Shown here: piece after piece, positions 3,918 through 55,902 of the stretch
How the letters are laid out: the number at the start of each line of letters is the position of its first letter
Numbering within the stretch: position 1 is the first letter of the stretch
NCBI GenBank assembly: GCA_964469335.1
Contig: CAYXYK010000003.1
Coordinates: forward strand, 132,674-196,673
Origin: an uncultured Candidatus Saccharibacteria bacterium
GTDB taxonomy: Bacteria; Patescibacteriota; Minisyncoccia; Phycocordibacterales; UBA6899
Direction of reading: 5' to 3'
Length of the DNA: 64,000 nucleotides
Made by a program: the position numbers and the translations under genes
Notes under the pieces: generated by a model
What the model was told of the DNA's origin: nothing
Seen by the model: the letters and a program-made list of their open reading frames with translations, nothing else
Databases searched by the model: none

Positions 3918-4334
3918 ATGAATGTCGAAGTAACTAAGGTTCCGCTCGTCGACTCGCTCGCATCCGGGAATGATTTCCTCGAAGCGGAGCATACCCTCGC
4001 GATGATACCGATACCGTCGAAGATGCTGAAGCACGGCGAGAAGTATTTCCTCGTGCGCGCCGAAGACCACTCGCTCAACCTTGCCGAAGTCGGTGGCACC
4101 AAAGTGAAGATCTTCACCTATGCGCTCGTGCGTCGTACCCGCACCGCAGAGCATGGAGACATAGTAGTGGCATGCCATAAAGGTGCGCTTACGATACGTG
4201 TGTACGAGAACGCGCACGGCATCGAGATCCTCCGTCCACGCTCGAGTGATGAAACGTTCGTCACCACCGTCCTCACCGAGCTGTGCGATGTGAAGGGTGT
4301 GGTCGTTGCCATTCTCCCTTCAAACCTCTATTAA
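3918..4334 (+). CDS. hypothetical protein
   Basis: 138-aa ORF. A -10-like TGTAGGAT box (3904-3911) lies 6 nt before the ATG, suggesting a leaderless mRNA. Confidence 0.5.
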   Translation: MNVEVTKVPLVDSLASGNDFLEAEHTLAMIPIPSKMLKHGEKYFLVRAEDHSLNLAEVGGTKVKIFTYALVRRTRTAEHGDIVVACHKGALTIRVYENAHGIEILRPRSSDETFVTTVLTELCDVKGVVVAILPSNLY

Positions 4335-4512
4335 GGACCTTTGTGCATGGCGAACTCCTTTGTTATAAGACGAAACACTTATGCCTCTGCCTCCTTACAG
4401 GAGCTGTACACCTTTTGGATTTCTCAGAAGAAATCTCATAAGGTCTTGAGGAATGGGTCCCAGCCCATTCCCTCACTCCGTGCCTCGGATTTCACTCATT
4501 TACAAAGGTCCT
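4333..4512. repeat. MITE-like element with 11-bp terminal inverted repeats AGGACCTTTGT ... ACAAAGGTCCT
   Basis: Inverted repeats at 4334-4344 and 4502-4512 flank 155 bp that contain two internal hairpins (GATTTCT/AGAAATC and GAATGGG/CCCATTC). Lies between a stop codon and the next promoter. Confidence 0.4.
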
Positions 4513-4570
4513 GCAGATAATAAACAAAAACCTTCGCGACGAGTGCTACGTGTTTCGCTATAATTAACTT

Positions 4571-6087: not shown

Positions 6088-6363
6088 ATGATGGCACGTC
6101 AGACGATCGAAACCCGCGCCCTCGAACGGTACTACCAGTTCCTGCGGCGCCTCGAGGCGGAAGACCTCGCGAACGACGACCTCGACGCTCCGTGCGATCG
6201 GGCCGAGCGGCGCACGCGCGCGCTGAAGCACTCGAACCAGCTCAGGCTCGCCTGGCACGTGCGCGACCGACACGGACGCGACGCACTCGAGGAGTTCTCG
6301 TTCTGGATGGAAGCGATGGCCGGAATGGCGGTCATGCTCGAAGTCTCGCTCATGGCAGCGTGA
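6088..6363 (+). CDS. hypothetical small Arg-rich protein
   Basis: 91-aa ORF with its own promoter, SD and strong terminator. Confidence 0.45.
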   Translation: MMARQTIETRALERYYQFLRRLEAEDLANDDLDAPCDRAERRTRALKHSNQLRLAWHVRDRHGRDALEEFSFWMEAMAGMAVMLEVSLMAA

Positions 6364-8960: not shown

Positions 8961-9112
8961 AATTTTTTAGTATACGTCAGCCTCGCGGGATTTGAGATGA
9001 GATGCGAGGAGCGGGCGAGTACGCGCCCGAGGCGTACGTGCTGGTACGGTGAGGGCGGGGCGGAGCCCGCGACAATGCAGGTCGCTCAAATCACGTGAGG
9101 TGTGAACAGGCG

Positions 9113-12100
9113 TTATTCTAACGCCTTCACTTTCTCCGCGATAACAGAGGGCGAATCATTCCGTCTCGAAAACTTCCCCTTAATCGCCACCATCTTATCC
9201 ACCACCAAAAACTCCTTCACCTCGGTGAAGGTGCGCGGGAACACCACAACTTCGATCGAGCCGGTGAAATCGGCCACCCGAAGGAACGCCATATGCTCGT
9301 TCTTTTTGGTGATCACCAGTTTGTGTTCTTCGATGATGCCGGCAAGGATCGTTGCCATGCCGTCACGGGTCTCTTCGTTCAGTTTCTTTATCGAACTACC
9401 ACTCTTCTCGATCTTCTCGCGGTGCTTCTCCAAGGGGTGCCCGGAAATATAGAGGCCGAGGAGTTCCTTCTCCCAGGCGAGCTTCGATTCTTGTGAGATC
9501 TCAGGAGCAGGGCGCATGCGTAGCGTCGGCATCGCGTGGGTGGTGCTCATCACGGAGAACAGCGACTCCTGATTGGAGGCTTTCTCGCGCGCATGTGCCT
9601 TGTGATACTCGAGTGCATCGTCGACATTGTGGAGGAGCACTCCGCGCTCTTCGCCCAAAGTATCGAAGCAGCCGGCGCGAATGAGCGACTCGAGTGACTT
9701 CTTGTTGAGGTCCTTGTGAGTGACACGCTCGAGGAATTCGGTGTAGCTCTTGTACGGACCATTCATATCTCGTTCCGCAATAATGGCATCACTTATCGCC
9801 TCACCCAAATTTTTAATTGTGTGTAGTCCAAAACGAATCTCATCTTTATTTACTGCTACGTCAGATTTGGATGAAGAGTGAGGCGCGGAGGAGGCGTCTT
9901 CGGGAGCTGTACGGGATGGTACTGCGACCGATGCGCCGACGCTTAGAGCGCAGCTATTCGCCAAATCTGGCTTAGCTTTGATGACGGTGAAGTCGGCTTG
10001 TGACTGATTGATGTCCGGAGGAAGCACATTAATCTTCATCCGCTTACACTCGGCGATCATCACCGCGATGGTGTCAGTGTCGCCACTTTCAGCCGTGAGG
10101 ACGGCGGTCATGTATTCGGCGGGGAAGTTGGCCTTCATGTATGCGGTCTGATAGGCGACGCGCCCATAGCAGGCGGCGTGCGCTTTGTTGAAACCGTACC
10201 CTTGGAACGGCTCGAAGAGTGCCCAAATAGCTTCAGCTTCTTCTTTCTTCATGCCGCTATGCGACTGACAGCCGTCGACGAAGATGACATGCTGCTTTGC
10301 CATTTCGGCGGGAATCTTCTTGCCGACCGCTTTGCGGAACTTGTCGACACCTTCCCAGTTGTATCCTGCGAGTTCGAGTGCGGTATAGAGGAGGTCGTCC
10401 TGATAGACGAGCACGCCGTAGCTCTTCGCGAGGAACGACTCTGCCTTGGGGTGGAAGTATTCGATCTTGCTGCGACCCTGCTTGCGCGCAATGTACTCGG
10501 GGATGTTGTTCATCGGACCCGGGCGATAGAGTGCGACCATCGCGTTGATGTCGTGGATGGTGGTCGGCTTGAGGTCGATCAAGTGTTTGGTCATGCCGGT
10601 ACCGTTCAATTGGAAGAGTCCTTCGGTCGCGCCGACGGCGAGCATCGCGAAGGTCTTCTTGTCGTCGAACGGAATCTTCTCGATCTCGATATCGATATTG
10701 CGATGCTCTTTCACCAGGCGTACCGCGTCACCGAGGATCGCGAGGTTTCGGATACCGAGGAAGTCGAGCTTGGTGAGGCCGACACCGTCTTCACCGACGG
10801 TGTACATGTCGTACTGGGTGATGAGCTTGCCACCCTTGGGGTCGAACTGGGTCGGCACGTATTCGATGAGGGGTTTCGGTGCGATCACCACACCCGCGGC
10901 ATGCACCGAGACATGGCGGACACATCCTTCGAGCTTCTTGGCGAGGTCGAGGATCTCGCGCGCCTCGGGGTCGGTGCCGTACATCTTCTTGAGGTCGGGT
11001 TCGAGGTCGAGCGCATGCTCGATGGTCATCGGGAATCCTTGCGAACCCATCGGGATGAGTTTCGAGATCTTGTCGCCGACGTCGTAGGGTTTGCCGAGCG
11101 CACGTGCGACGTCGCGCACCGAGCCGCGCGCCATCATGGTTCCGAAGGTACCGATCTGTGCGACCTTGTCTGCGCCGTACTTTCTTTTCGCGTACTCGAT
11201 CACTTCTTCGCGGCGGTTATCGGCGAAGTCCATATCGATATCGGGAGCGGACGGGCGGAACGGATTGAGGAAGCGCTCGAACGGCAGCTGGAATTCGATC
11301 GGGTCGACGTTGGTGATCCCCGAGAGGTACGCGACGTGCGAACCTGCCGCCGAACCACGCACGGTGGTGTAGATGCCGGCTTCGCGGGCAAAGCGCAAGA
11401 GGTCAGCGACCACGAGGAAGTACGGCGCGTAGTTCTTGTTCTTGATCACCTCGAGTTCGTACTTGCGGCGCTCCTCGGAGACCGTGTCGTTCGAGAGGCC
11501 GCGCTCCTTGGCGCCCTTCTGAGTGAGTTCGTCCAGCATCTGGTCCGCGGTCTTGCCGGGTTCGAGCGCGAAGTCAGGGAAGATGAATTTGCCGAGCGTG
11601 AGTTCGACGTTGCACTCTGCGGCGATCTTCGCGGTGTTGTATACCGCGTCAGGAGTCTTGGGGAAGAGGGCGAGCGCCTCTTTGGTCGAGATGAAGCTCG
11701 CGTCGAATTCGAACTTCATACCGTCGTCGACTCCGCCCACGCCGCCGGTCTGGATGCCAAGGAGGGTCTCGTGTGCTTTCTTGTCTTCCTTGTGGAGGTA
11801 GTGCGAGTCGTGGGTCGCGACGAGGGGAATATCGAGTTCGCGCGCGAGTGCGACCAGTGCGTCTTCGACCTCGTCATGTCCCTCGATCTCGGGCTTGTGC
11901 ATGATCTCGATGTAGTAGTTCTCCTTGCCGAAGATCTCCTGATACTCGAGTGCGATCGCGACCGCGCGGTCGTGGTCGCGACTACGCAGCGCTCGCGACA
12001 GCTCTCCGCCGAAACAGCCCGAGAGTGCGATCACGCCTTCCGAATACATCCGTAGCAAGTCTTTGTCGACGCGCGGTTTGTAGTAGTAGCCCTCGAGGTG

Positions 12101-12439: not shown

Positions 12440-12445
12440 GCGCCA

Positions 12446-12451
12446 ATTATA
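12446..12451 (-). promoter_or_regulatory. -10 box TATAAT 6 nt upstream of the dnaE ATG (leaderless)
   Basis: Minus strand reads gctATAATtggcgcATG. Confidence 0.3.
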
Positions 12452-12463
12452 GCCTAGATAGAT

Positions 12464-12472
12464 TATCCACAC
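12464..12472. promoter_or_regulatory. perfect DnaA-box 9-mer TTATCCACA upstream of the dnaE promoter
   Basis: Exact consensus match. A 6-2-6 palindrome ATTGTGccCACAAT (12495-12508) lies nearby. Confidence 0.3.
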
Positions 12473-12529
12473 GTATTGCCGAGGGGTGGTATCTATTGTG
12501 CCCACAATCTCGCATCATAGATACAAAAA

Positions 12530-14328: not shown

Positions 14329-14357
14329 TTGTTGGTAATTCCATAAATGACAAACTT

Positions 14358-14425
14358 TTTCGTTGTGGGTCCCTGTCGCCTCATCACCATACTCCGAGTA
14401 TGGCTCTTTCGGCGACCACCCACGC
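14358..14425 (+). repeat. extended palindromic intergenic element (copy R1 of the recurrent family)
   Basis: Inner hairpin CCATAC-tccga-GTATGG is nested in outer stems GTGGGT..GTCGCC / GGCGAC..ACCCAC. Its 5' flank resembles copy R6. Confidence 0.4.
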
Positions 14426-14478
14426 CTCAAATTTTGTACATTTCTGAAATTCCACAGCAGGAACTGTGACAGAGAAAA

Positions 14479-29584: not shown

Positions 29585-31855
29585 ATGAGGTTGAAACGGT
29601 TGGAAATCTTTGGATTCAAATCCTTCGGCAAGAAGGCTGTTCTCGAGTTCTCCTCACAGATCACCTCGGTCGTCGGTCCGAATGGTTCCGGCAAATCCAA
29701 TGTCGCAGAAGGTATCCGTTTCGTACTCGGTGAACAGTCGATGAAATCGATGCGCGGTAAACGCGGAGAGGACCTCATCTTCAACGGCTCACAGTCGACC
29801 GGCCGCGCCAACCGTGCGAGTGTTGCGATCGTGTTCGACAACTCGAAGCGCGAATTTCCACTCGACTTCGACGAAGTCTCCGTCTCGCGTGAAGTCTATC
29901 GCGACGGCTCCAATCAGTATTTCATCAACGGCTCACAGGTCCGCCTCAAGGACGTGTTCGAGCTCCTCGCTTCAGTCCACATCGGCGCCTCGGGCCATCA
30001 CATGATCTCACAAGGTGAAGCAGACCGTATCTTGAATGCAAACCCGAAGGAGCGCCGCGAGATGCTCGAAGACGCGCTCGGTCTCAAGGTCTACCAATAC
30101 AAGCGCGCCGAGAGTGAACGCCGACTCGAGAAGACCGAAGAGAACCTGAAGGAGGCAGAGGCACTTCGCCGCGAGATCGCTCCGCACCTGCGCTTCCTCA
30201 AGAAGCAGGTAGAGAAGGTCAACGAAGGCAAAGCCCTGCGCGAGCGCCTGATCGGACTCTATCGTGAATATCTGAAGCGTGAAGAGATCTATATCACCCG
30301 AAAGAAAGAAGAGATCGCCGGGAAGCGTGCGGATCCCGCAGCTGAACTCGCCGACCTCATGATCAAAATAGCGCATGCGCGCGAACTCCTCGCAGGCGAG
30401 AATGCCGGCGACGAAAAGAGCCAGCGCCTCCTCGCGGTGGACGCCAAACTGCGCGAAGTGCGCCAGCGCCACGACGAACATTCCCGCACCGCAGGCCGTA
30501 TCGACGGTATGATCGAGTTCGAGGAGAAGCAGCTCAAGAAAAAGCAGGAAGCCCTCGAACACAAAGAAGATATTCCCATTCGCCTCGGCGACGTCGAAGG
30601 GCTCGAGAGTACAATCGCACAGGAAATAGCCATCGCTGAGAATTCCGACGACCTCCATGTCATCCGCGGTGTGTTCGGTCGTGTTCGCGCAGCGGTTCGC
30701 GACTTCATCAATCATCACAAGGTACAGGCAGGCGAAAAGACCCTCACCCAAGAAGACTATCGCGAGCTCGAGGAGCTAAAGGCGGAGCGTGCCCGCGCAG
30801 AGGATTCGCTCCGTGCGGTTTCCGAGGAGTCGGCACAAATGGAACGCGAGTATCAGGCAGTGAAGGCAGAGATCGACGCCGAGAAGCAGCACTCACGCGA
30901 GACCGAGCGTGCACTCTTCGAGATGATGAACCGCCGCGGTGAGCTGCAGTCTGTGCTCGACCGGATCAAGAACGAAGAGGACAACATTCTGCGCGAAGGG
31001 CGCCGCCTCGAAGAAGAACTCGGCGAAGCCGGCATCCTGCTTGGCCGTGCGGTGCTCGACTATTCCAATATTGAGCTTTCGATCGAAGAGGTCATGGGTG
31101 AACCGCGTGATTCCCAGGAGCAGCGTCGCCGTGAGATCGAACGCGGCAAGATCCGTCTCGAGGACATCGGTGCCCAGGGTGGGGAAGATGTCGAGAAGGA
31201 ATTCGCCGAGACGACCGAACGCGACAAATACCTCGAGAATGAGATCGCCGATCTGGTGAAGACCCAAGAGTCCCTCTACTCACTCATCGCCGAACTCAAT
31301 GAGAAGCTCAACAACGAATTCCGCGACGGCGTGAAGAAGATCAACAAGCAGTTCAGCGACTTCTTTACCTTGATGTTCGGTGGCGGTGTCGCAGAGCTGT
31401 TCGTGGTGAAGATCGAGAAACGCGGCAAGAAGAAGGACACCGAACTCGATCTCTCTGATCTTCCGGGAGAAGCAGTGGACGGAGAAGAGGAAGAGGACGA
31501 AGAGGGTATCGACATTGCCGTCTCACTTCCGCACAAGAAGACCAAGGGGCTCGTCATGCTCTCCGGCGGTGAGCGCGCACTCACATCAATTGCACTTCTC
31601 TTTGCAATCTCTCAGGTTAACCCGCCGCCGTTCATGGTGCTCGATGAGACCGATGCTGCCCTCGACGAAGCAAACTCACGCAAGTATGGCGACATGATCG
31701 AGAATCTCGCCAAACTCTCGCAGCTGATGGTGATTACCCACAACCGCGAGACCATGTCACGCGCTGGCACTATTTATGGGATCACGATGGGGGCGGATGC
31801 GGTGTCGAAGGTGCTTTCGATCTCCTTTGACGACGCCTCAGCTGTCGCGAAGTAA
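29585..31855 (+). CDS. smc: SMC-like chromosome segregation ATPase, short (about 756 aa) and lacking a recognisable hinge
   Basis: N-terminus MRLKRLEIFGFKSFGK..GPNGSGKSN. C-terminal signature LSGGERALTSIALLFAI and D-loop MVLDETDAALDE. TACAAT box lies 9 nt before ATG 29585, with an in-frame GTG at 29576. Confidence 0.7.
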   Translation: MRLKRLEIFGFKSFGKKAVLEFSSQITSVVGPNGSGKSNVAEGIRFVLGEQSMKSMRGKRGEDLIFNGSQSTGRANRASVAIVFDNSKREFPLDFDEVSVSREVYRDGSNQYFINGSQVRLKDVFELLASVHIGASGHHMISQGEADRILNANPKERREMLEDALGLKVYQYKRAESERRLEKTEENLKEAEALRREIAPHLRFLKKQVEKVNEGKALRERLIGLYREYLKREEIYITRKKEEIAGKRADPAAELADLMIKIAHARELLAGENAGDEKSQRLLAVDAKLREVRQRHDEHSRTAGRIDGMIEFEEKQLKKKQEALEHKEDIPIRLGDVEGLESTIAQEIAIAENSDDLHVIRGVFGRVRAAVRDFINHHKVQAGEKTLTQEDYRELEELKAERARAEDSLRAVSEESAQMEREYQAVKAEIDAEKQHSRETERALFEMMNRRGELQSVLDRIKNEEDNILREGRRLEEELGEAGILLGRAVLDYSNIELSIEEVMGEPRDSQEQRRREIERGKIRLEDIGAQGGEDVEKEFAETTERDKYLENEIADLVKTQESLYSLIAELNEKLNNEFRDGVKKINKQFSDFFTLMFGGGVAELFVVKIEKRGKKKDTELDLSDLPGEAVDGEEEEDEEGIDIAVSLPHKKTKGLVMLSGGERALTSIALLFAISQVNPPPFMVLDETDAALDEANSRKYGDMIENLAKLSQLMVITHNRETMSRAGTIYGITMGADAVSKVLSISFDDASAVAK

Positions 31856-31960
31856 TTTTGGCGCCCTCCTCGTCCTTCCTTCGGCGAACTTCGTCACCGT
31901 ACACCGCGTACGGCTCCGAAGTATCACCTCAGTCCAGGACTTCGGATTGCATCCAAAATT
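31854..31960 (+). repeat. MITE-like intergenic element, family copy R5
   Basis: Terminal inverted repeats AATTTTGG/CCAAAATT. Central hairpin CCGTAC-accgc-GTACGG (31897-31913) covaries with the R2 hairpin. Confidence 0.5.
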
Positions 31961-32441
31961 CCTTCGCTCCAGGGGACGGGGGATAAGTGTGGTGGAGAGA
32001 GCACAGAAGCGGAACGTCCTCTGAAAGAAACTCATGGAGCAAAATCTCATACTTTGACAATCCGTGGACGGTGGAGTAGTTTTCTCTTCGGAGAGGTAAC
32101 AGACGGATAGTGGCATTTGCCCCAAGAAGTGAAGGTGACTCTTGGTCCAGAGATCGCTGACTCCTGCGGGGGAAGGCGTGAGGCAAGGAGGTTCGACCCC
32201 TCCCCGTTGCGAACGTACTAGGATGTACTGTGTAGGATAGGTCTGAGGCTTTGAAGTGGTGTCGCCAGGCATCATGGAGCCACCGTTGAAATAAGACCCT
32301 GTATGTCTGAAGAGCGAAAGTTCTGAGCATTGCAATCCGACGTCGATGGCACTCTCGACAACACCCAGCACCGTTAGGTGTGCGGTAGTGATGCGTTGAC
32401 CGAATGATCGCGTACATAGTAGCCCTCTCCACCCCATACCA
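31961..32441 (+). other. unassigned noncoding region (candidate structured RNA or decayed element) ending at a + strand terminator
   Basis: No credible ORF on either strand. Contains a UUCG-loop hairpin (tTCTCttcgGAGAg) and a tRNA-like T-arm. A + strand terminator lies at 32442-32467. Confidence 0.25.
32166..32214 (+). other. fragment resembling a tRNA 3' end (T-arm GGAGG-TTCGACC-CCTCC + acceptor strand CCGTTGC + G) with a possible 7-nt partner GCGGGGG
   Basis: Canonical T-loop TTCGACC. Position 70 of the acceptor strand is U. No D or anticodon arm could be folded upstream. Confidence 0.3.
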
Positions 32442-34407: not shown

Positions 34408-34677
34408 ATGACCGTAGTCATGAAAGAGCAGGGATGTGTGGCATCGACCATCGGCTATTACTTGGTCATCATCGGTGCGATCAATTGGGGCCTCGTCGGG
34501 CTCAGTGATTTCACAATGATGAATCTCAATGTCGTGAACCTTCTCGTCGGGGGAATGCCGACGCTCGAGTCACTCGTCTATATTGCCGTCGGAGTCGCCG
34601 GAGTGATGACACTCATCGGGTGCAGATGCTCTACCTGCAAGGCCTGCCGCGTCGAAGGGGGAAACCCACAAAAATAG
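34408..34677 (+). CDS. DUF378-family small membrane protein
   Basis: Motif IIGAINWGLVGL and a 2-TM layout typical of the YuiB/DUF378 family. Confidence 0.55.
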   Translation: MTVVMKEQGCVASTIGYYLVIIGAINWGLVGLSDFTMMNLNVVNLLVGGMPTLESLVYIAVGVAGVMTLIGCRCSTCKACRVEGGNPQK

Positions 34678-34679
34678 CG

Positions 34680-34790
34680 AGCTTCTTCGTTGCGGGTCCC
34701 AACCTACTCAGTCAACATAGGAAGACTACGTCTTCTTCGCAGGTATTCCCGCGTCTCGAATCTCATCAATTTTTGCGAGTTTCAAGATAA
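34680..34790 (+). repeat. intergenic element, family copy R6
   Basis: Hairpin ACATAG-gaaga-CTACGT (34715-34731, one mismatch) enclosed by GCGGG/CCCGC. Flanks resemble R1 and R8. Confidence 0.45.
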
Positions 34791-37989: not shown

Positions 37990-38394
37990 ATGTTAGCAAT
38001 CAGATTAAAGCGCGTCGGCCGCACCAATGACCCTTCATTCCGCATCATCGTGCAGGATCATCGCCGTTCACCAAAGAAGACCCGCGGCGTCGCAGAGTAC
38101 GTCGGTTCGTATGACGCACGCAAAGGCAAGCCGCAGATCGATGCAGAGCGCGTGAAGTACTGGATCAGTATGGGCGCTCAGCCTTCGGACACCGTGCACA
38201 ATCTCCTTGTCGGAGCAAAGATCATCGAAGGCAAGAAGGTCAACGCAATGAACAAGAAGACAAAGCCGGTCAAGGAAGTTCCGAAGGAAGAAGCAAAGAA
38301 AGCAGCCCCCGCAGCACCCGCCGCAGAAGCCGCTCCCGCTCCAGTGGAGGAAGCTCCCGCAGAAGCAGCAGCAGAGGCCACTCCCGCCGCATAA
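37990..38394 (+). CDS. rpsP: ribosomal protein S16 (bS16) with Ala/Pro/Glu-rich C-terminal extension
   Basis: N-terminus MLAIRLKRVGRTNDPSFRIIV. The tail is KKAAPAAPAAEAAPAPVEEAP.... Confidence 0.8.
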   Translation: MLAIRLKRVGRTNDPSFRIIVQDHRRSPKKTRGVAEYVGSYDARKGKPQIDAERVKYWISMGAQPSDTVHNLLVGAKIIEGKKVNAMNKKTKPVKEVPKEEAKKAAPAAPAAEAAPAPVEEAPAEAAAEATPAA

Positions 38395-38413
38395 CTTACG
38401 AAATGAAAACAAA

Positions 38414-38441
38414 ACACCCCCTGCGTGGGGTGTTTTGTTTT
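38414..38441 (+). terminator. intrinsic terminator
   Basis: Hairpin ACACCCC-ctgcgt-GGGGTGT followed by a T-run. Confidence 0.55.
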
Positions 38442-38560
38442 GTCTCGGGGTGCACATGGTTATTATTTCCGTTATCGGCTGGGGCTAACCCCTCTCGCTT
38501 GTGGGTGTGCATTCTCTCTGCCTCACATATAATAGTGAAATTACGATTCAATTTAATTCC

Positions 38561-43936: not shown

Positions 43937-44032
43937 CTGAATTCGTTGACCAAAACGCCTCAATAGCCCATAATTGGACTTGCAATGGAGCGATCCAGAG
44001 CAGCGCACATTTAACAGGTAGCAAGTAAAGAT

Positions 44033-44359
44033 ATGGCTGAAACATTCAGTGACAAGGAGTTCCTCGAATTCGTGGTGAAGAACCTTGTCGATAAACCGGA
44101 CGCAGTCAAAGTGACTCGTGTGGTAGACGAAATGGGAGTATTACTGACACTCGATATCGATCCTGAAGACATGGGCAAGGTGATCGGACGCATGGGCAAC
44201 ACTGCCAAGGCGGTCCGCACTCTGCTTCGCGTCGTCGGAATGAAGAACAATGCGCGTGTGAACCTGAAGATCAACGAGCCTGAGGGCGGCAAGCGTGCCG
44301 GACAGGTGGCATCGGATTCGTCGGACGTATCTGACATCATCGCCGATCTCAAAGCTTAA
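44033..44359 (+). CDS. KH-domain RNA-binding protein (UPF0109 family)
   Basis: Motif VIGRMGNTAKAVRTLL. Normally lies between rpsP and rimM/trmD. Confidence 0.7.
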   Translation: MAETFSDKEFLEFVVKNLVDKPDAVKVTRVVDEMGVLLTLDIDPEDMGKVIGRMGNTAKAVRTLLRVVGMKNNARVNLKINEPEGGKRAGQVASDSSDVSDIIADLKA

Positions 44360-44552
44360 ATTTCCAAATCGAGCTTCTCGCTCGAGTTTCTCAAAACAGA
44401 CCCAGTCGTCGTACTCCGAGTACGCCTTCCGGGTCTGTTTTGCTATTACTCTCGAGATGTATCTCGATTAGGTATCTTCACAATGAGTCAACTCAAGGAT
44501 TCGCTTTTGATCTAAAATTTCTTCGAGTCTTCAAGTGATGGAATTTGGAAAT
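44360..44552 (+). repeat. composite MITE-like element, family copy R7, with 10-bp terminal inverted repeats ATTTCCAAAT/ATTTGGAAAT
   Basis: Terminal inverted repeats at 44360-44369 and 44543-44552. Nested hairpin: outer AACAGACCC/GGGTCTGTT, inner CGTAC-tccga-GTACG (44395-44441), followed by a T-run. Second hairpin CTCGAGAT/ATCTCGA. Confidence 0.45.
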
Positions 44553-44771
44553 GCCCTGGTGGTGCATTCAAAATATCGCTCCTGGTATATCAACGCAAAC
44601 AGGGAATTTTGAATGAAAGACTCACTTCATGAAGCGTGTTTTTCGCTCGATTCGAAATTGTTGGATCCCTCTGTCCCCACATGGCAAGAAGTTCGTGAAC
44701 TTTCCCAGTAAAAAATTTGCTACACTGAGGAAGTAAAATATTGTTCATAAAGTCTCCATTTCCCAACTTCG

Positions 44772-47492: not shown

Positions 47493-47556
47493 CTATTCGG
47501 GCTATGGAGCATCGAAATGACATCGGGGAAACGGGCATCGGATTTCATTCAAAGAA

Positions 47557-47999: not shown

Positions 48000-48683
48000 A
48001 TGATCCGTTTTCATGTCGTTTCACTCTTCCCGGAGACCGTCGAGCCCTACGTCACGAGCTCGATTTTGGGGCGTGCGATCGAGGACAAGAAGATGTCCGT
48101 GAAGTATTACAATCCGCGCGATTTCACCCGCGATAAATGGCGCCGCATCGATCGCCGTCCGTATGCGGGCGGACCCGGTATGGTGATCGAAGCCGAACCG
48201 TTCTTGAAGGCGGTCGCAAAAGCGAAAGGAAAAAAAGAGAAGCGGGTGAAGACCGTGTTCTTCGCCACCGACGGGAAACAATTCACCAACACGCTCGCAC
48301 GTAAATGGGCAAAGGACTACGACGATATCATTTTCATCTGCGGTCGCTACGAGGGTATCGATGCACGTGTGCAAAAGATCACGAAGGCAGAGAAGATCTC
48401 GATCGGTCCGGTCGTGTTAACCGGGGGAGAGATCCCCGCGATGCTCGTGATCGATGCAGTCGCGCGTCAGGTGCCCGGCATTCTCGGTTCATTTGAGTCG
48501 GTCGAGGAGGAGCGCACTGCTTCTCCCGACGTCTATACTCGCCCCGAAGTCTTTGTGTGGAAGAAAAAAAAGTATGCTGTGCCCAAGGTGTTACTGGGAG
48601 GAAACCATAAGGAAATTGAACTTTGGAAGAAAAAACAGCTCGACCGCAAGAAGCCGAAACCAAGCGTAGAAACAATCTCCTAA
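48000..48683 (+). CDS. trmD: tRNA (guanine37-N1)-methyltransferase
   Basis: TrmD motifs FHVVSLFPE and GRYEGIDARV. Has a Lys-rich C-terminal tail. Confidence 0.85.
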   Translation: MIRFHVVSLFPETVEPYVTSSILGRAIEDKKMSVKYYNPRDFTRDKWRRIDRRPYAGGPGMVIEAEPFLKAVAKAKGKKEKRVKTVFFATDGKQFTNTLARKWAKDYDDIIFICGRYEGIDARVQKITKAEKISIGPVVLTGGEIPAMLVIDAVARQVPGILGSFESVEEERTASPDVYTRPEVFVWKKKKYAVPKVLLGGNHKEIELWKKKQLDRKKPKPSVETIS

Positions 48684-48685
48684 CT

Positions 48686-49984
48686 ATGTCCGAGGAACTC
48701 CGTCACGAAAATGTCGAAGAGACTCCGGTCGAAGCGGAAGTTGTCGACCCGTACCTTGCGTTCCGCGATGAGCGAATGAGGTCATGGCGTGAGGGTGATG
48801 CGCCTATCGTCGAACGAGCGGAATTCGAGCGCCAGTCGTATCAGAACAGCCTCGAGAATATGCAGCACTTCAGTGAGCAATTCGAAAAGCGCGCAGAGTC
48901 ATTACGAGGTGATATTGATGAGAAAAAATCCGGTCTGCTCTCACGCATCCTCCATTTCAGGCAGATCCGTGACCTCGAGTCCGAGCTTGGTATCACCGAG
49001 CACCAGGCACGTCGCTCGCGAGAGATGGCAGATGAACGTGCACAGCTCATCGCTCAGTATGACCGTATCATCGCCGAAGAGAACGAACTCGGTGCGCTGA
49101 TGGAAGAGGCGCAAAAGGAGAATGAAGCCTGGGACGAGGAGAAACGCCATGACTACCTTGAGAGTGAACGGAGACGTGATCTCACACAGCTCTCTCGCGA
49201 ACACAAGACATTTTTCGTGCATGACATCGTGACTGCGGCATGGAAACCATCCGAGAACAACGAGGCAGTGAATACCAAACAAATGGACTGGGGTGATCAG
49301 TTCGACGTCTTGCTCGGACTGGAGCCGACGATTGCCGCATCGACACTCGATCATGCACATGGAGGGGAACAACGGACCTTTGGTCAACAGAGTTGGGGTG
49401 TGTTTCTTTCGGGGGGACGTGTGCTCGGCGGCAATGTTGTCGATGCGGGCACACGCGCATACGGTCTCTATGATCGCGTGGTGCCGAAAGGGAAGGATGA
49501 CCCCGATGCGATCGAGCACGCGATCACCGGCCGCGGAGAAGGACACAATGAACTTATCATCGAGAAGCCAGAGATCGCCGGAGTGTATGCGAAATGGTTC
49601 CCAGATATCCCGCTTCTCCCGGAAATGTCACTCCAGAACACCAAGTCGGTTGGCTATGACGGATGGTGGAAGAACATGCGAAAGGTGATGGATCGCAATG
49701 TCCCTGTTTTTGTACTTACACAGGACGGCAGGACCAAGATGCTTTACGACATCGACCCCGAATCCCGCACCTTCAAGGTCACTGATGCGGAGTTCGAGCC
49801 CGAGCACCTGAGCGACCTCCCTGGCATCTATAAACAGCATCTTGGGGAAGAGGAGCGAAAGAAAGCGGTCATGCGTGTGTTCGACAAGGTCTCGGGTGCG
49901 CTCACCGAGGACCAGAGGGAACAGTTCGCTCCGGACAGCAGCGAGCATACTCCTGACGATTCGCCATACCGACTCCATCAGTGA
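48686..49984 (+). CDS. hypothetical acidic protein
   Basis: 432 aa. Starts 2 nt after the trmD stop. Confidence 0.5.
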   Translation: MSEELRHENVEETPVEAEVVDPYLAFRDERMRSWREGDAPIVERAEFERQSYQNSLENMQHFSEQFEKRAESLRGDIDEKKSGLLSRILHFRQIRDLESELGITEHQARRSREMADERAQLIAQYDRIIAEENELGALMEEAQKENEAWDEEKRHDYLESERRRDLTQLSREHKTFFVHDIVTAAWKPSENNEAVNTKQMDWGDQFDVLLGLEPTIAASTLDHAHGGEQRTFGQQSWGVFLSGGRVLGGNVVDAGTRAYGLYDRVVPKGKDDPDAIEHAITGRGEGHNELIIEKPEIAGVYAKWFPDIPLLPEMSLQNTKSVGYDGWWKNMRKVMDRNVPVFVLTQDGRTKMLYDIDPESRTFKVTDAEFEPEHLSDLPGIYKQHLGEEERKKAVMRVFDKVSGALTEDQREQFAPDSSEHTPDDSPYRLHQ

Positions 49985-51154: not shown

Positions 51155-51367
51155 ATGACAGAATACGTCGCAAACGAAATAAACAAACTCCGTATCGCGA
51201 GCGGTGTCACCCAAGAGGAGCTCGCCGATGCGGTTGGAGTCTCGCGCCAGACCATCATTGCGATCGAACGCGGCAAATATACGCCGTCGGTCCTTCTTGC
51301 ACTCAAGCTCGGGAAATACTTCGCTACTCCTGTTGAAAAACTATTCACCATTCGTCATGAAAAATAA
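51155..51367 (+). CDS. XRE-family helix-turn-helix transcriptional regulator
   Basis: 70 aa. Motif [29 protein letters not shown] (Cro/C1-type HTH). Confidence 0.7.
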
Positions 51368-51815
51368 TCAACAAATCACAAAGGAGTCTCTTGCTCCGTC
51401 GTCACTCGGCCGAAATGAGAAAGAAGACTCTCTCACTCCAGGCCTCGCTAGCCGGAGTAATCTCATCATCGAAACACTCGTCGGTTCCATCCTGATCGCC
51501 ATCGTCATCCTGATCCTCAACCCGATGGACTTCTGGATGCCGGATATGGCACACGTCACCGCACTCACGATGCTTCTGGTCGTTTTCGTACTCTATGCCT
51601 CGTTCATTCTGCGCGAGAAAGCGCGCGACGAGCGTGACGTACTGCACCGCATGTTCGCCGCCCGCGCCGCGTTCTTCACCGGCACCGCACTTCTCACGCT
51701 TGGGGTATTCTTCGGCGCCCTAAAGGGTGATATCGACATGTGGCTGGTCATTTCTCTTGTCGGAATGATACTCGCGAAGCTTGTTGCCCGCTTCTACTCA
51801 GACAAAAACCTTTAG
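51357..51815 (+). CDS. membrane protein partner of the XRE regulator
   Basis: 152 aa with 4 TM helices. Its start overlaps the XRE gene by 11 nt. Confidence 0.5.
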
Positions 51816-51819
51816 AACG

Positions 51820-51960
51820 GGCGGATTTCTTTGTTGTAAGGCGAAGCACTTATCCCCAGCTAATTCAATCAACGTAGGAGGACTACGTCTTTTTCGTGAA
51901 CTATCCCGCGCCGCGAACTCCATCCCGTTCTATGGGTTTTAGAGATAGGTATTCTATGTA
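51820..51960 (+). repeat. intergenic element, family copy R8
   Basis: Hairpin ACGTAG-gagga-CTACGT (51872-51888). 5' box gggcggatttctttgttg resembles R3 and R1. Confidence 0.4.
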
Positions 51961-52002: not shown

Positions 52003-53889
52003 ATGTCTTTATTGATCATTGCATTCATTGCGGGAATACTCACCGTTTTAGCGCCGTGCATCTTGCCGCTCCTACCTGTCGTAGTTGGCGGTTCTTTAGA
52101 CAATAAGGGTGGGGGAGTTTCGCTCAAGCGCGCCTTTGTTGTGATCGTTTCGCTTTCACTCTCGCTCATCGTCTTCACGCTCCTCCTCAAGGTGTCGACG
52201 CTCTTTATCAATATTCCTCCGGATACGTGGAAGTGGGTTTCGGGTTCAATCATCATTTTCTTCGGGCTCATCTCGATCTTCCCGAAGTTGTGGGAGAGTC
52301 TGCCGTTCGTCGCGCGCTGGAGCCAGGAGTCGAATATGGCACTCGGCAAAGGCTATCAGAAGAAGAATGTCTGGGGCGATATCATCATCGGGGCATCACT
52401 TGGTCCGGTGTTCTCAACCTGCTCACCGACATACTTCGTCATTCTTGCGACCGTCCTCCCGGTCTCGTTCGCACTCGGTCTTGTGTACCTAGCCGCGTAT
52501 GTCGTCGGCCTCTCGCTTTCACTGCTTGCGATCGCATTCGTCGGACAGAAGCTGATGGGCAAGCTTGGTGTCGTTGCTGATCCGCACGGCAAGTTTAAAC
52601 GTGGGCTCGGCGTGCTGTTCCTCTTGGTAGGTATCGCGATCCTCACCGGCTATGACAAACAGCTGCAGCTCAATATCTTGAACTCCGGATTTTACGATGT
52701 CACCCAAGTCGAACAAAAACTACTCGAGCAAAATGACATGCAGGTTGCGCCAATCACTCAGCCGCTCGGACCGAGCGAGGACATGCCGGTGGATGTTGGC
52801 AGCGCATCATCGACTAGCGTGGTTCCCGGTTCGTCTCTCGGGGAAACAGCGACGAAGAAGCCCGCGGTACGTTATCTTTCAGAGACCGAAAAGGCAGTGC
52901 TCTACAAAAAAACTGCCGAACTCACCGGTATCGACGGTTACATCAATACGAACGGCCAGCCGATCAAGATCGCAGACTACAAAGGCAAGGCGGTCGTCCT
53001 GATCGATATCTGGACTTACAGCTGCATCAACTGCCAGCGTACGCTTCCATATGTGACGAGTTGGTACGGCAAGTACAAAGACAAAGGTCTCGTCATCATC
53101 GGTGTGCATACTCCCGAATTCGCATTCGAACAGGTACAGAAGAACGTCGAAGCAGCGATGAAGAAAGACGGCATCCTGTATCCGGTCGTGCTCGACAACA
53201 AATACGCGACCTGGAACGCATTCGGCAATCGTTACTGGCCGAGGAAGTACCTCATCGATATCGACGGCTACATCGTCTACGATCATGCGGGTGAGGGTGC
53301 GTATGAGGAGGCAGAGATGGCGATCCAAAAAGCATTGATGGAACGCAACGACAGACTTGGTCTCGATGAAAGCGGTATCGCGGTAGCAACGACCAAGATC
53401 GACGCGGCGTCGACGAACGCAGGCAGCCCCGAGACGTACTTCGGTGCCGCGCGCAACGAATACTTCAGCAACGGCAAACAGGGGAGGACCGGAGAGCAGA
53501 CACTGATGGAGCCGCTCTCGGTCGCTCCGAACATGCTCTATCTCATCGGTAAATGGAATATCCAAGATGAGTTCGCGGAGACGAGCGCGGATGTCGGTTC
53601 GGGTAGTGTTGGCAGTGATCGAGTAGACTATCTCTACAACGCCAAAGGTGTCTACTTCGTTGCTGGTGCGAAGTCTGGTTCCGTGACGATGGAGGTCGCT
53701 GTCGACAGTAAGCCGATAGACACTGCTATGCGCGGCGCGGATGTATTCGAAAAAGACGGCCGCACCTATGTCACTGTTACGGAGAATCGCCTCTACCGCA
53801 TCATCGACGCGAAAACCGCAGAGAAACATTTGCTCGAGTTCATCATCAGTTCGCCAGGACTACAAGCCTACACCTTCACCTTCGGTTAA
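52003..53889 (+). CDS. CcdA/DsbD-like transmembrane electron transporter fused to a TlpA/ResA-like thioredoxin domain and a C-terminal extracytoplasmic domain
   Basis: CcdA motif LAPCILPLLP. Thioredoxin CxxC site WTYSCINCQ. 628 aa. Confidence 0.65.
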   Translation: MSLLIIAFIAGILTVLAPCILPLLPVVVGGSLDNKGGGVSLKRAFVVIVSLSLSLIVFTLLLKVSTLFINIPPDTWKWVSGSIIIFFGLISIFPKLWESLPFVARWSQESNMALGKGYQKKNVWGDIIIGASLGPVFSTCSPTYFVILATVLPVSFALGLVYLAAYVVGLSLSLLAIAFVGQKLMGKLGVVADPHGKFKRGLGVLFLLVGIAILTGYDKQLQLNILNSGFYDVTQVEQKLLEQNDMQVAPITQPLGPSEDMPVDVGSASSTSVVPGSSLGETATKKPAVRYLSETEKAVLYKKTAELTGIDGYINTNGQPIKIADYKGKAVVLIDIWTYSCINCQRTLPYVTSWYGKYKDKGLVIIGVHTPEFAFEQVQKNVEAAMKKDGILYPVVLDNKYATWNAFGNRYWPRKYLIDIDGYIVYDHAGEGAYEEAEMAIQKALMERNDRLGLDESGIAVATTKIDAASTNAGSPETYFGAARNEYFSNGKQGRTGEQTLMEPLSVAPNMLYLIGKWNIQDEFAETSADVGSGSVGSDRVDYLYNAKGVYFVAGAKSGSVTMEVAVDSKPIDTAMRGADVFEKDGRTYVTVTENRLYRIIDAKTAEKHLLEFIISSPGLQAYTFTFG

Positions 53890-54010
53890 AACTTTTGATT
53901 TTGGCAGTCTACTGCGTTGGCTGCGTCGCGAATCTGTTAACGTACAATGAGTACGTCTCACAGGGCTCGCTTCCCTGGCGCCTTGTATCCAATCCAAAAT
54001 CAAAAGTTTT
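53888..54010 (+). repeat. MITE-like element, family copy R9, with perfect 17-bp terminal inverted repeats AAAACTTTTGATTTTGG / CCAAAATCAAAAGTTTT
   Basis: Terminal inverted repeats at 53888-53904 and 53994-54010 (verified as exact reverse complements). Central hairpin ACGTAC-aatga-GTACGT (53940-53956). Internal boxes align with R2. Confidence 0.55.
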
Positions 54011-54061
54011 CGAGGCGGCAAATACGAAATTCTCATCAAGTGATAAACTAATATTAATCTC

Positions 54062-54625
54062 ATGAAAAACGAAATTGCCATTTTTGGAGGAGGATGCTTC
54101 TGGTGCACCGAAGCAGTGTTTCAGATGATGAAGGGCGTCAGCGCCGTAAAGCCAGGCTATGCCGGCGGCGAGAAAGCGAACCCTACCTATCAAGAAGTTT
54201 CTTCTGGTATGACCGGCCACGCCGAAGTCATTCATATCACCTATGACCCAAGCGTGGTGAAGTACACCGACCTCCTCACGGTATTCTTTGGTTCACATGA
54301 TCCGACCACCAAGAATAGACAAGGTGCCGATGTCGGTACCCAGTATCGCTCGATCATCCTCACCACGAGCGATGAACAAGCAACAGAAGCCAAGAAGTTC
54401 ATCGAAGAACTCAACACCTCGAGCGAATTCGGTGACCCGATCGTCACTGAAGTGGAGCCGCTCAAAGAGTTCTACGGCGCCGAGGACTATCACAAGAATT
54501 ATTTCCGTGACAATCCGAACCAAGGCTACTGCCAGATTGTCATCAATCCGAAACTCGAAAAAGTGAAAAAGAATTTTGCAGCGTTGTTGGACAGCACGTA
54601 CGCAAATAGCGCACTTCAGCGTTGA
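54062..54625 (+). CDS. msrA: peptide methionine sulfoxide reductase A
   Basis: Active-site motif GGGCFWCTE. Confidence 0.85.
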   Translation: MKNEIAIFGGGCFWCTEAVFQMMKGVSAVKPGYAGGEKANPTYQEVSSGMTGHAEVIHITYDPSVVKYTDLLTVFFGSHDPTTKNRQGADVGTQYRSIILTTSDEQATEAKKFIEELNTSSEFGDPIVTEVEPLKEFYGAEDYHKNYFRDNPNQGYCQIVINPKLEKVKKNFAALLDSTYANSALQR

Positions 54626-54746
54626 CCGCGCCGTCGAGTCCCCTCAACGTACCAATGTGTACGCCTCGCGGACATCTCGGCTTGTCGCCTCGAATTGCAT
54701 CTATTTGCTTAAGTGCTCAATGATTTAACAAATAAACAAAACTAAT

Positions 54747-55124
54747 ATGGATGAAAATGAGATCAAGGCGAAATTAACCCCCGAGGAGTACCACGTGCTG
54801 CGCGAGAAAGGCACCGAAGCACCAGGAACAGGGAAGTATCTTCACGAGAAAGCAGAGGGGACATATAAATGCAAAGTCTGCGGCAATCCGCTCTTCGCTT
54901 CGGACGCGAAGTTCGAGTCCGGCACCGGCTGGCCGTCGTTCGATCAGGCACTCGAGGGCGCAGTGAAGTATGAGCACGACAACAAGTATGGCATGGAGCG
55001 TACTGAAGTCTTGTGCGCCAAATGCGAGTCGCATCTCGGTCACGTCTTCGACGACGGCCCTGAGACGACAGGCAAGCGCTACTGTATGAACTCGGTCTGT
55101 CTCGATCTTGAGGCGAAGAAATAG
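54747..55124 (+). CDS. msrB: peptide methionine sulfoxide reductase B
   Basis: SelR/MsrB motifs CKVCGNPLF, CAKCESHLGHVF and RYCMNS. Confidence 0.85.
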   Translation: MDENEIKAKLTPEEYHVLREKGTEAPGTGKYLHEKAEGTYKCKVCGNPLFASDAKFESGTGWPSFDQALEGAVKYEHDNKYGMERTEVLCAKCESHLGHVFDDGPETTGKRYCMNSVCLDLEAKK

Positions 55125-55156
55125 AAAAAGACCACGCACCGAGCGTGGTCTTTTTC
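55125..55156. terminator. bidirectional terminator hairpin GACCACGC-accga-GCGTGGTC
   Basis: A5 before and T5 after. Sits between the convergent msrB and 55162..55902. Confidence 0.55.
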
Positions 55157-55161
55157 TGCTG

Positions 55162-55902
55162 CTACTGACTGACTGTTCCTGAGATGGTCGTACTTGCGAG
55201 TACTCCACACTTCTCAGGGTGCCAACCGCAGCGATTGTCACGCGGCATCATGGTGCCGTCCGGGCACATCCGAGCTTCCATGGTGCAGTGAATCGGAAGT
55301 CTGTCATCCGGGTTCCACGTTGTCGTTCCCATTGGTGGGATAGGTTTTCCGCCGCACGGTAGACATTCAGTGCCTTCCTTGCATGCCATCATCGGACAAG
55401 GATAAGGCTTACTAGAGGTGCTTGTCCCACCACCGTTACCTATGCCGAGTCCTCCTCCGCAGCCTTTCTCGTGCTGTTTGCGCGAGAGTTCACCGAAATA
55501 TCCAGTGGGAGTGATCCCTCCCTCCTTCTGGAACCTCATTACTGCGGCCTTGGTCATCGGGCCGAAGTATCCAGTCGATGAGGCGGCGAGGAAACCCTTC
55601 TCACGGAGCATCTCTTGTAATTCTTTCACGTCGTCACCGCGGAGTCCGAGTGCGAGTCCGCGAGAGAACTTCTTGCACATAGGAGTGCCTGAGCCCATCA
55701 TCGGCATCGAAGTGCTCGAGAAGATGATGTGATCGGGCTTCCCGAACATCGGCGGAATGCCGCTCCCCATTGGAGTGGCAGTTCCCATCACTCCTGGTCC
55801 TCCGCGCATCCAGGTCGGATCGATCCGCTCCTCTGCGTGTGCGATGCTTGCGACGAATAAACTGGCAATGAATGCGGTAAAGAATATGTTTCTCATAGAC
55901 AA
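55162..55902 (-). CDS. secreted Met-rich protein with peptidoglycan-binding (PG_binding_1-like) domain and Cys-rich C-terminus
   Basis: Signal peptide. About 20 Met in the mature protein (PMGSGIPPMFG, MPMMGSG). PG_binding_1-like LRGDDVKELQEMLREKGF..GYFGPMTKAAVMRFQ. 12 Cys C-terminally. Confidence 0.5.
   Translation of the reverse strand: MSMRNIFFTAFIASLFVASIAHAEERIDPTWMRGGPGVMGTATPMGSGIPPMFGKPDHIIFSSTSMPMMGSGTPMCKKFSRGLALGLRGDDVKELQEMLREKGFLAASSTGYFGPMTKAAVMRFQKEGGITPTGYFGELSRKQHEKGCGGGLGIGNGGGTSTSSKPYPCPMMACKEGTECLPCGGKPIPPMGTTTWNPDDRLPIHCTMEARMCPDGTMMPRDNRCGWHPEKCGVLASTTISGTVSQ

Follow-up and report, generated by a model that had tools for sequence, protein, structure and literature searches.

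R9, an old and fixed copy of a palindromic repeat family at the ccdA-trx stop codon

The inverted repeat between ccdA-trx and msrA

We analysed a 64-kb stretch of contig CAYXYK010000003.1 (the window), in which an open reading frame (ORF) at 52003-53889 encodes a ccdA-thioredoxin fusion (ccdA-trx; Pfam DsbD_TM, Redoxin and Thioredoxin_10) and is followed at 54062-54625 by a gene identified as MsrA by Pfam. Between these two genes lies R9, a non-coding palindromic element whose arms, AAAACTTTTGATTTTGG at 53888-53904 and CCAAAATCAAAAGTTTT at 53994-54010, are 100% complementary over 17 nt and enclose a gap of 89 nt. A previous sequence-only reading of this DNA had taken the arms for the terminal inverted repeats (TIRs) of a recently mobile miniature inverted-repeat transposable element (MITE). 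The repeat itself is real and far beyond chance, but R9 is an old, fixed copy of a repeat family that has been kept as a hairpin, and it does not record a recent transposition.

When up to three mismatches are allowed, the 17-mer of R9 matches only its own two arms within the window, where shuffled sequence leads one to expect 0.07 matches (n=100), and two matches were obtained in 0/100 shuffles. A window-wide scan for inverted repeats (seed 10, minimum length 13, arms at most 250 nt apart) returned R9 as the longest perfect inverted repeat, the remaining two being 15-bp terminator-type hairpins at 38406-38441 and 55123-55157. As had been proposed, the 5' arm opens with the last two bases of the ccdA-trx stop codon. 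The parts of R9, all on the plus strand, are:

53884..54016, plus strand: whole copy, an irregular 45-bp hairpin with four helices (covariance models)
53887..53889, plus strand: stop codon TAA of ccdA-trx (ORF list, Pfam), whose last two bases are the first two of the basal helix
53888..53904, plus strand: 5' arm of the basal helix AAAACTTTTGATTTTGG, previously read as the left TIR; its columns change on both sides with pairing kept in 7 alleles
53909..53920, plus strand: conserved 5' box CTACTGCGTTGG, family consensus CTnCTTCGTTG (family consensus, information content)
53940..53956, plus strand: apical hairpin ACGTAC-AATGA-GTACGT, with conserved TCA and CUC internal-loop bases beside it (RNAalifold)
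53977..53990, plus strand: conserved 3' box GGCGCCTTGTATCC, family consensus GCGCCTCGnATTnCATCC
53994..54010, plus strand: 3' arm of the basal helix CCAAAATCAAAAGTTTT, previously read as the right TIR (inverted-repeat search, pairing analysis)

R9 is predicted to fold with a minimum free energy of -42.7 kcal/mol (z = -5.4). Covariance modelling started from R9 orthologs and was then refined on 23 copies, with scores named after the R1 and R2 models; R9 itself reaches 129.8 bits with the R1 model and 110.4 bits with the R2 model. The proposed similarity between the interior of R9 and a copy at ~17534-17640 is borne out by the boxes that they have in common (TTTTGGCA..CTACT.CG and AATCT.GT.AACGTA) and by the score of that copy, 68-100 bits. 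Part of the 5' box of R9 is a pyrimidine internal loop, and the box also holds a conserved U.G pair (alignment columns 34/99), which is unchanged in 7/7 R9 alleles on the gene-sense strand.

A search of the whole window against Rfam at the gathering threshold gave a single match, a 23S rRNA fragment at 32221-32308, and none for R9; with E values up to 10, the region 53860-54040 yielded chance-level matches alone. The apical motif of R9 had no match among viral contigs. No promoter was predicted between R9 and msrA, and a terminator scan of 53700-55300 gave a single hit, at 55123-55157 after msrB.

Age of the site and compensatory change in the hairpin

Orthologous loci were gathered through the flanking ccdA-trx protein; in the following, W is the window allele, and L- and P-numbers are related loci or sequences used in comparison. 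Behind ccdA-trx, an element starts at the stop codon in L009, L001, L007, L008, L094 and L091/L092, with flanking proteins that are 71-100% identical, and the basal helix takes in that stop codon (TAA or TAG) in every ortholog. No element was found behind the ccdA-trx orthologs of L010 (64% protein identity) and L011 (62%), and L095 (65%) has only a shorter hairpin at this site. The ccdA-trx/msrA site has been filled since before the sampled relatives split. The outer stems of four alleles are:

W: 5' arm AAAACTTTTGATTTTGG, 3' arm CCAAAATCAAAAGTTTT
L009: 5' arm AAAACTTTTTATTTCGG, 3' arm CCGAAATAAAAAGTTTT
L091: 5' arm AAAATTCATAAATTTGG, 3' arm CCAAATTAATGAATTTT
L008: 5' arm GGATTCTCAAAAAGAG, 3' arm CTCTTTTTGAGAACC

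The stem of L009 is likewise a perfect 17-bp helix, with two compensated differences from W, although the four-fold degenerate sites of ccdA-trx have reached saturation between these two genomes (identity 0.30). Over the 7 alleles, standard pairs occupy 91.4% of cells, compared with 34-47% when the partners are slid against each other, and 27/45 pairs have changed on both sides (62 cells, compared with 7-14 cells in the slid controls); 0/500 shuffles reached these values for pairing and double changes. In helix 1, double changes are seen at 17/24 pairs. RNAalifold, applied to 5 orthologs, predicted 45 pairs with compensatory changes in 25 of them. The pairing of R9 has been maintained by compensatory change, and the element is better conserved than the silent sites of the flanking gene: the four-fold sites of ccdA-trx are only 0.30-0.45 identical among the compared genomes and thus saturated, whereas R9 alleles reach 0.86-0.89. 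The elements of W and L009 are 83-90% identical, compared with ~60-70% for the coding DNA beside them. A recent recombination patch was considered as the source of this similarity and rejected, since the high identity is limited to the element and the start region of msrA. The nearest relatives of R9 are its positional orthologs, with identities from 0.83 (L009) to 0.65, and paralogs reach at most 0.60.

The sequence-only reading had stated beforehand that relatives carrying the same insertion with diverged repeats would speak for an ancient, fixed feature, and this is what is found at the ccdA-trx/msrA locus: the sites of L009, L001, L007, L008, L091 and L094 are filled, and their outer repeats have diverged yet remain complementary. 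The perfection of the repeat in W had been its evidence for recent mobility. The age of an insertion cannot be read from a perfect terminal inverted repeat on a single copy, since selection keeps a helix perfect for any length of time.

The repeat family, its past spread and its turnover

R9 belongs to a family of palindromic repeats of ~125 nt, of which the covariance model detects 13 copies in the window (~2.6% of its length) and 21 more in the related loci compared. The other copies of the window are:

4330..4518, plus strand: weaker, longer copy starting at the stop (4332-4334) of a Peptidase_S24 gene; 38.6 bits with the R2 model; inverted repeat 4334-4349/4497-4512
8974..9105, minus strand: a few nt past the dnaE stop, in the gene's own orientation
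9848..9981, minus strand: in frame within the dnaE ORF 9113-12505 (minus strand)
14330..14459, plus strand: behind a canonical terminator-like hairpin, not behind a stop codon
17522..17654, plus strand: behind a NusB/NUDIX gene; copy R2 of the sequence-only reading
20341..20473, plus strand: behind the RNase III gene, with a TAG stop within the basal helix
28849..28982, plus strand: behind the phosphoketolase gene, with the stop within the basal helix ATAAGTTC..GAACTTAT
31841..31975, plus strand: behind the SMC gene, the basal helix reaching into the last codons; ortholog in L001 at 223-356
34657..34789, plus strand: behind a DUF378 gene, with the TAG stop at the junction to the conserved core and a canonical terminator next
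44353..44485, plus strand: directly behind the KhpA stop; part of a ~190-nt composite hairpin reaching to ~44550; missing in L091, which has a canonical terminator instead
51801..51946, plus strand: after ORF 51204-51815, whose stop lies in the basal helix TAGAACGGG/CCCGTTCTA; missing in L091, L092 and L093
54589..54723, plus strand: overlaps the msrA 3' end, with the TGA stop (54623-54625) within a conserved CGTTGA box

The family consensus has four parts, namely a variable outer stem, the 5' box CTnCTTCGTTG, the apical part TCAcCGTAC-N5-GTACGnCTC and the 3' box GCGCCTCGnATTnCATCC. In the resulting irregular hairpin of ~45 bp, an apical stem CGTAC-N5-GTACG is followed by two middle helices and the basal helix, and the pyrimidine-rich internal loops (CTTCG, CCTCG, TCA and CTC) are conserved. 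Information content is lowest in the outer stem and highest in the boxes and the internal-loop bases; the columns of the apical hairpin are the most conserved of the family, and helix 4 is paired in 89-95%. Over all 34 copies, 86.5% of cells are paired and 43/45 pairs show double changes, figures which lean towards structure because the alignment was fitted to the model. The 17-bp "terminal inverted repeat" of R9 is the basal helix of this hairpin, which is free to vary in sequence while it remains paired. True MITE TIRs are common to the copies of a family. The claim that the perfect repeats are TIRs of the transposase type is thus not supported, as conservation in the element is weakest in the outer stem, the 17-mer is unique to R9 and no transposase was found in the ORF scans described below.

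On the sequences at hand, the family appears to be specific to one lineage, a narrow clade of Paceibacterota within the candidate phyla radiation (CPR) bacteria. A covariance-model search of 80 metagenome loci with ccdA-trx relatives of ~50% identity (890 kb) gave matches in L026 only, and the family is therefore confined to its clade rather than being an RNA of Paceibacterota in general. Among genome records, L001 comes closest, a metagenome-assembled genome of Candidatus Paceibacterota, whose ccdA-trx protein is 72% identical and which is syntenic with the window over 31.6-64 kb; other ccdA-trx homologs are annotated as Paceibacterota or Kaiserbacteria. The genes of the window are housekeeping genes (DnaE, SMC, RNase III, RNase R, RNase HII, KhpA, S16, TrmD, RpoB, phosphoketolase, acetate kinase and MsrA/MsrB). 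In the literature, we found no description of palindromic elements or MITEs in CPR bacteria.

The family spread in the past as inserted DNA. The copy at 9848-9981 is an in-frame insert of 126 nt, which adds 42 residues to the product of dnaE (1130 codons) between the PPDIN..FTV and IRFGL motifs; residues 802-883 and 882-970 of Taq Pol III alpha align on either side of the insert, and query residues 86-127 have no counterpart in that protein. One relative (P0122/L096) has the insert in common with the window, and it is missing in six others (P0121, P0125, P0235, P0124, P0126 and P0131). The R1 model gives the hairpin within dnaE 48 bits in the window, against 24 in L096; this copy, in which protein coding dominates, is decaying. 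At the end of msrA, the reading frame enters the copy at 54589-54723 and ends at the TGA in the CGTTGA box, which creates the new C-terminus LLDSTYANSALQR, and relics of the ancestral last codons and stop of msrA are found downstream of the copy. In L009 (7625-7740) and L007 (11056-11175) msrA is followed immediately by msrB, stop against start, with no repeat copy in between, and the msrA-msrB junction of L001 (13030-13290) holds a copy in the opposite orientation.

Copies also differ in presence between close strains. Three independent assemblies (L091, L092 and L093) are 96-100% identical to the window at the nucleotide level; they are without the copy at 51801 and the copy behind KhpA and have the msrA copy, which in L091 is 99% identical to that of the window in the model alignment (39-40/40 per sliding window). 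Between the window and the near-identical strain, presence differs at 2 of 4 shared sites and the allele at 1. The idea of a mobile element therefore holds for the family, a once-mobile, multi-copy and non-coding palindrome, and not for recent movement of R9.

Comparisons of filled and empty sites at msrA-msrB, 51801 and dnaE allowed no target-site duplication to be defined, their flanks being too diverged or partly replaced; at R9, none was identified here, as in the sequence-only reading. Among ~50 ORFs of the window scanned against Pfam, with 64 kb of the genome visible, there was no transposase, and in particular no Y1_Tnp (RAYT) gene; an autonomous insertion sequence (IS) with matching ends, for which a search had been suggested, was not found in these ORFs either. 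A link to the Y1 transposase of L010 was considered and rejected, as the terminal hairpins of that IS200-like gene are unrelated and L010 holds one weak copy of the family only. The IS200-like element itself (L010 11850-12390) has a Y1_Tnp gene of 126 residues and GC-rich subterminal hairpins CCGCGCGCTCCTGCGCGG and ACCGCGGACTCCTGTCCGCGGT.

Some elements are composite. Behind khpA (window 44357-44550) and rnc (20474-20516), and also in L009 (1344-1560) and L001 (6068-6240), a complete hairpin is followed by an extra tail that resembles the 3' arm (GTCCAAGACTTCG..ATCCAAAA) of the 17522/31841 subfamily. Those behind khpA and rnc look like nested or partly overwritten copies. Two strain-specific islands flank khpA. 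The first (window 38501-43936, region 38380-44003), missing in L091 (1667-1817), is the gene of a repeat-rich protein of 1811 residues with proline/threonine-type linkers from CCN/ACN repeats and C-terminal SH3_3 and PG_binding_1 domains, and the second (44772-47492, region 44356-47556), missing in L091 (2170-2680), is the gene of a PAS/HAMP histidine kinase of 906 residues.

At the R9 site the window and L091 differ in the allele. Sliding windows are 40/40 identical on both sides of the following patch and only ~60-65% identical within it:

53845..54090, plus strand: patch divergent from L091 (there ~8760-9010), comprising the final ~40 nt of ccdA-trx, R9 itself, the spacer and the opening codons of msrA

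The two R9 alleles are only ~62-69% identical despite flanks that are 100% identical. The difference reaches into both flanking genes and therefore fits homologous replacement and not transposition; from the sequence comparison, the patch reads as a replacement by homologous recombination of one allele at an already filled site, atop strong constraint. The R9 alleles fall into the groups W+L009, L091+L094 and L001+L007, with L008 alone, and this grouping is incongruent with both flanking genes, which suggests exchange of alleles between lineages.

Taken together, it is highly improbable that R9 is a recently transposed MITE whose perfect 17-bp TIRs bind a transposase and which inserted at the TA/TAA of a stop codon. 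This explanation would account for the perfect and non-random inverted repeat of a short, non-coding element; the family is multi-copy with empty and filled sites, insertion polymorphism is seen elsewhere in it together with an intragenic insertion, and the different allele in the near-identical L091 implies a recent event at the R9 site itself. However, the site is filled in 7/7 alleles whose flanking proteins are 71-100% identical, the stem of L009 is equally perfect although silent sites between the two genomes are saturated, and the event in L091 spans both flanking genes. In addition, the outer stems are not common to the copies, no TIRs shared between copies and matching an IS were found in the 64 kb visible, and near-identical copies are missing: the top identity between any two copies of the window is 0.67, and the best paralog of R9 in the window reaches 0.60. 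Neither a target-site duplication nor, among the ORFs scanned, a transposase was found.

Two further features lie elsewhere in the window. The 88-nt match at 32221-32308 (plus strand) corresponds to positions 2127-2214 of bacterial 23S rRNA, in the L1-stalk region, and scores 61 bits, above the gathering score; the ORFs scanned around it (~31.9-34.3 kb) have no Pfam match, and the stretch may be an mRNA leader that mimics the L1-binding site. The tRNA scan of the window gave one dubious tRNA, unrelated to R9: ARAGORN called a tRNA-Arg (TCG) of 95 nt at 49374-49468 (plus strand) within a 453-codon ORF (48623-49984) that has no Pfam match and similar-sized gene calls at the syntenic position in L007 and L091. 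This is probably a false call; if not, it would be an embedded tRNA of an unusual kind. The GC-skew profile, consulted for the strand of the elements relative to replication, follows gene orientation and shows no clear origin.

Placement, strand and possible role of the hairpin

Most copies are in sense orientation directly behind a gene. In 9 sense copies the upstream stop codon lies within the basal helix or, at 54589, within the element core; two further basal helices begin directly after a stop (44353) or ~7-10 nt after it (8974), and several reach into the last codons. This position raises the question whether the long hairpins are the intrinsic transcription terminators of the lineage, which we consider very unlikely. 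They come after stop codons, the R9 alleles of W, L009, L091 and L094 open with AAAA and close with TTTT like a bidirectional terminator, and there is no canonical terminator between ccdA-trx and msrA, the first one downstream of R9 being that at 55123-55157, past msrB. On the other hand, the T-run after the helix is missing in most copies, one copy lies after a terminator, one within dnaE and one between msrA and msrB, and canonical short GC-rich terminators with T-runs occur in the same genomes, often just downstream of an element (L001 ~445-495 and ~6270-6300, after window 34789, and after L007 3077). Because canonical terminators lie downstream of them, the elements are located in 3' untranslated regions (UTRs) or between cistrons and are not terminators themselves. 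The hairpins at 38406-38441 and 55123-55157, which are perfect over 15 bp, bracketed by A-runs and T-runs and located at or within ~12 nt of the rpsP and msrB stops, have the look of bidirectional intrinsic terminators; in this compact genome it is thus a general feature that hairpins lie tight against stop codons.

By analogy with better known repeats, we consider it reasonably likely that R9 is an old, fixed copy whose hairpin is kept for a role of the RNA in the 3' UTR or intercistronic region. In such a scenario the hairpin of a family that once spread as inserted DNA would have been retained as an RNA useful to the host at the end of the upstream cistron, similar to REP, ERIC and Correia elements. 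It could act as a barrier to 3'-to-5' decay of the upstream mRNA or serve as a substrate of RNase III (the genes for RNase III and RNase R are both located in the window). It could also modulate termination or processing at the stop codon, because ribosomes must melt the base of the hairpin to reach the stop that it encloses. Hairpins of Correia/NEMIS RNA are substrates of RNase III, and Rickettsia palindromic elements (RPEs) insert in frame (PMC2229807); according to the passage in PMC12306157 that cites Liang et al. 2015, REPs at most 15 nt from a stop codon stall ribosomes and lower upstream expression. The function at the RNA level is what we infer from these parallels and from the retained pairing.

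Several observations weigh against an RNA role. The complement of the gene-sense strand is predicted to be the more stable one in 22/23 copies with RNA parameters and in 28/28 with DNA parameters, and a role at the DNA level or of an antisense transcript therefore fits at least as well; unpaired positions are 71% pyrimidine on the gene-sense strand. Helix mismatches are G.U in 62 and A.C in 58 cases in the family (15 and 10 in the R9 alleles), and as both are equally frequent there is no wobble-pair signal for a transcribed strand; the single U.G pair kept by all seven R9 alleles on the gene-sense strand points the other way. In the relatives, four to five copies are antisense with respect to their neighbouring genes and lie right next to a start codon. 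Furthermore, compaction of the genome may account for part of the adjacency to stop codons, as canonical terminators likewise begin at or near stops, and with R9 allele groups that are incongruent with both flanking genes, exchange of alleles rather than constraint could explain some of the conservation seen. Among the antisense copies, L007 10426-10558, L010 7238-7372 and L001 13101-13228 (all on the minus strand) end 3 nt from the downstream ATG; the junction reads CTAAAC-AYT-ATG in L007 and L001, so that the 5' end of the element is GTTTAG, like the G-N-Y-TAR at the stop end of sense copies. The TAG/TAA at the stop-codon end may thus belong to the element itself.

The main rival explanation is a selfish DNA palindrome without host function, whose symmetry exists at the DNA level, either as a single-stranded hairpin or cruciform seen by a trans-acting recombinase or nuclease, or through repair or gene conversion between the arms, and whose copies persist through resistance to deletion or through recombinational exchange. 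We regard this as possible, if rather unlikely. The better fold of the complement with DNA parameters in all 28 copies is in its favour, as are the symmetrical G.U and A.C mismatches, which are expected if neither RNA strand is selected, the occurrence of both orientations in relatives, the in-frame copy within dnaE, the high turnover between near-identical strains (presence at 2/4 sites and the allele at 1) and R9 alleles that move independently of their flanks. However, an immobile ortholog would have no reason to retain 91% pairing, or 83-90% identity where silent sites are saturated, and a streamlined genome would be expected to lose useless blocks of 125 nt. A selfish palindrome likewise leaves the strong bias towards sense orientation with an enclosed stop unexplained. 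The conserved unpaired boxes resemble recognition sites, and no candidate enzyme was found in the ORF scans of the window, the only Y1 transposase, that of L010, having unrelated hairpins.

A single-strand recombination site of the integron attC or REP/RAYT type seems extremely unlikely to us. Elements located directly behind ORFs, a complementary (bottom) strand that folds better, a length inside the attC range and GTAG/CTAC in the apical stem of some copies would be consistent with it. Yet the neighbours are syntenic housekeeping genes and not cassettes, the ends read TAAAAC...GTTTTC or TAATTTTGG...CCAAAATAA with no RYYYAAC/GTTRRRY core sites, the units are three to four times as long as a REP, and the scan of ~50 ORFs of the window found neither an integrase nor a RAYT.

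Proteobacteria are well known to harbour palindromic repeats dispersed through the genome, REP, ERIC, Correia and RPE among them. The family described here belongs neither to the REPs, attC sites or intrinsic terminators nor to any Rfam family, although it resembles several of these. REPs and BIMEs of E. coli are extragenic palindromes in 3' UTRs or between cistrons, which protect the upstream mRNA and share the position near stop codons; they differ in being only 20-40 nt long and associated with a RAYT, whereas our elements comprise ~125 nt, four helices and conserved internal loops. Intrinsic terminators have in common with the family the hairpin directly behind the stop and, in some R9 alleles, the A-run and T-run brackets, and differ from the irregular helix of ~45 bp, which mostly lacks a T-run and coexists with canonical terminators downstream. 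The Correia/NEMIS elements of Neisseria and the ERIC/IRU elements of enterobacteria are bacterial MITEs, non-coding palindromes of ~100-170 bp that are co-transcribed with adjacent genes, whose hairpins are processed by RNases and alter mRNA stability, and which show empty and filled sites between strains (PMC2229807). Empty and filled sites are also seen here, and co-transcription would be a further shared trait by analogy; in contrast, those elements have terminal repeats in all copies, TA termini and target-site duplications, whereas the termini are the least conserved part of our family and no duplication could be defined.

There is a likeness in behaviour, and in behaviour only, to the RPEs, palindromes of ~105-146 bp with long stem-loops that are intergenic or in frame in conserved protein genes and whose copies are old and divergent with no known transposase (PMC2229807). 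Size and long stem-loop are similar, the dnaE insert is in frame, and identity between copies does not exceed 67%. The hosts belong to unrelated phyla, however, and no sequence similarity was seen, Rickettsia sequences not being among those compared. Unlike RPEs, the sense copies enclose the upstream stop codon, the outer stem is specific to each copy, and the orthologs show dense compensatory change.

CPR genomes are small, with ~1 Mb, and tightly packed. An expenditure of ~2.6% of the window on one repeat family in such a genome calls for an explanation. The family is an informative case in this respect, as it combines positional orthologs, dense compensatory change, a copy in an essential gene, empty sites and an allele swap. 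One conceivable explanation, which goes further than the RNA role favoured above and which we put forward as doubtful, is domestication of the repeat: a CPR-specific, cis-acting RNA module would have evolved from a palindromic mobile element, with its helix taking in the upstream stop codon. If this were true, the invariant loops CUUCG, CCUCG, UCA and CUC would serve to dock a dedicated RNA-binding protein or RNase, such as the KH-domain pair KhpA/KhpB or RNase III, and conservation of the element above that of the surrounding coding sequence as well as allele swaps between lineages would be consequences of this function. The family would then provide one post-transcriptional control point for dozens of housekeeping genes in a minimal genome.

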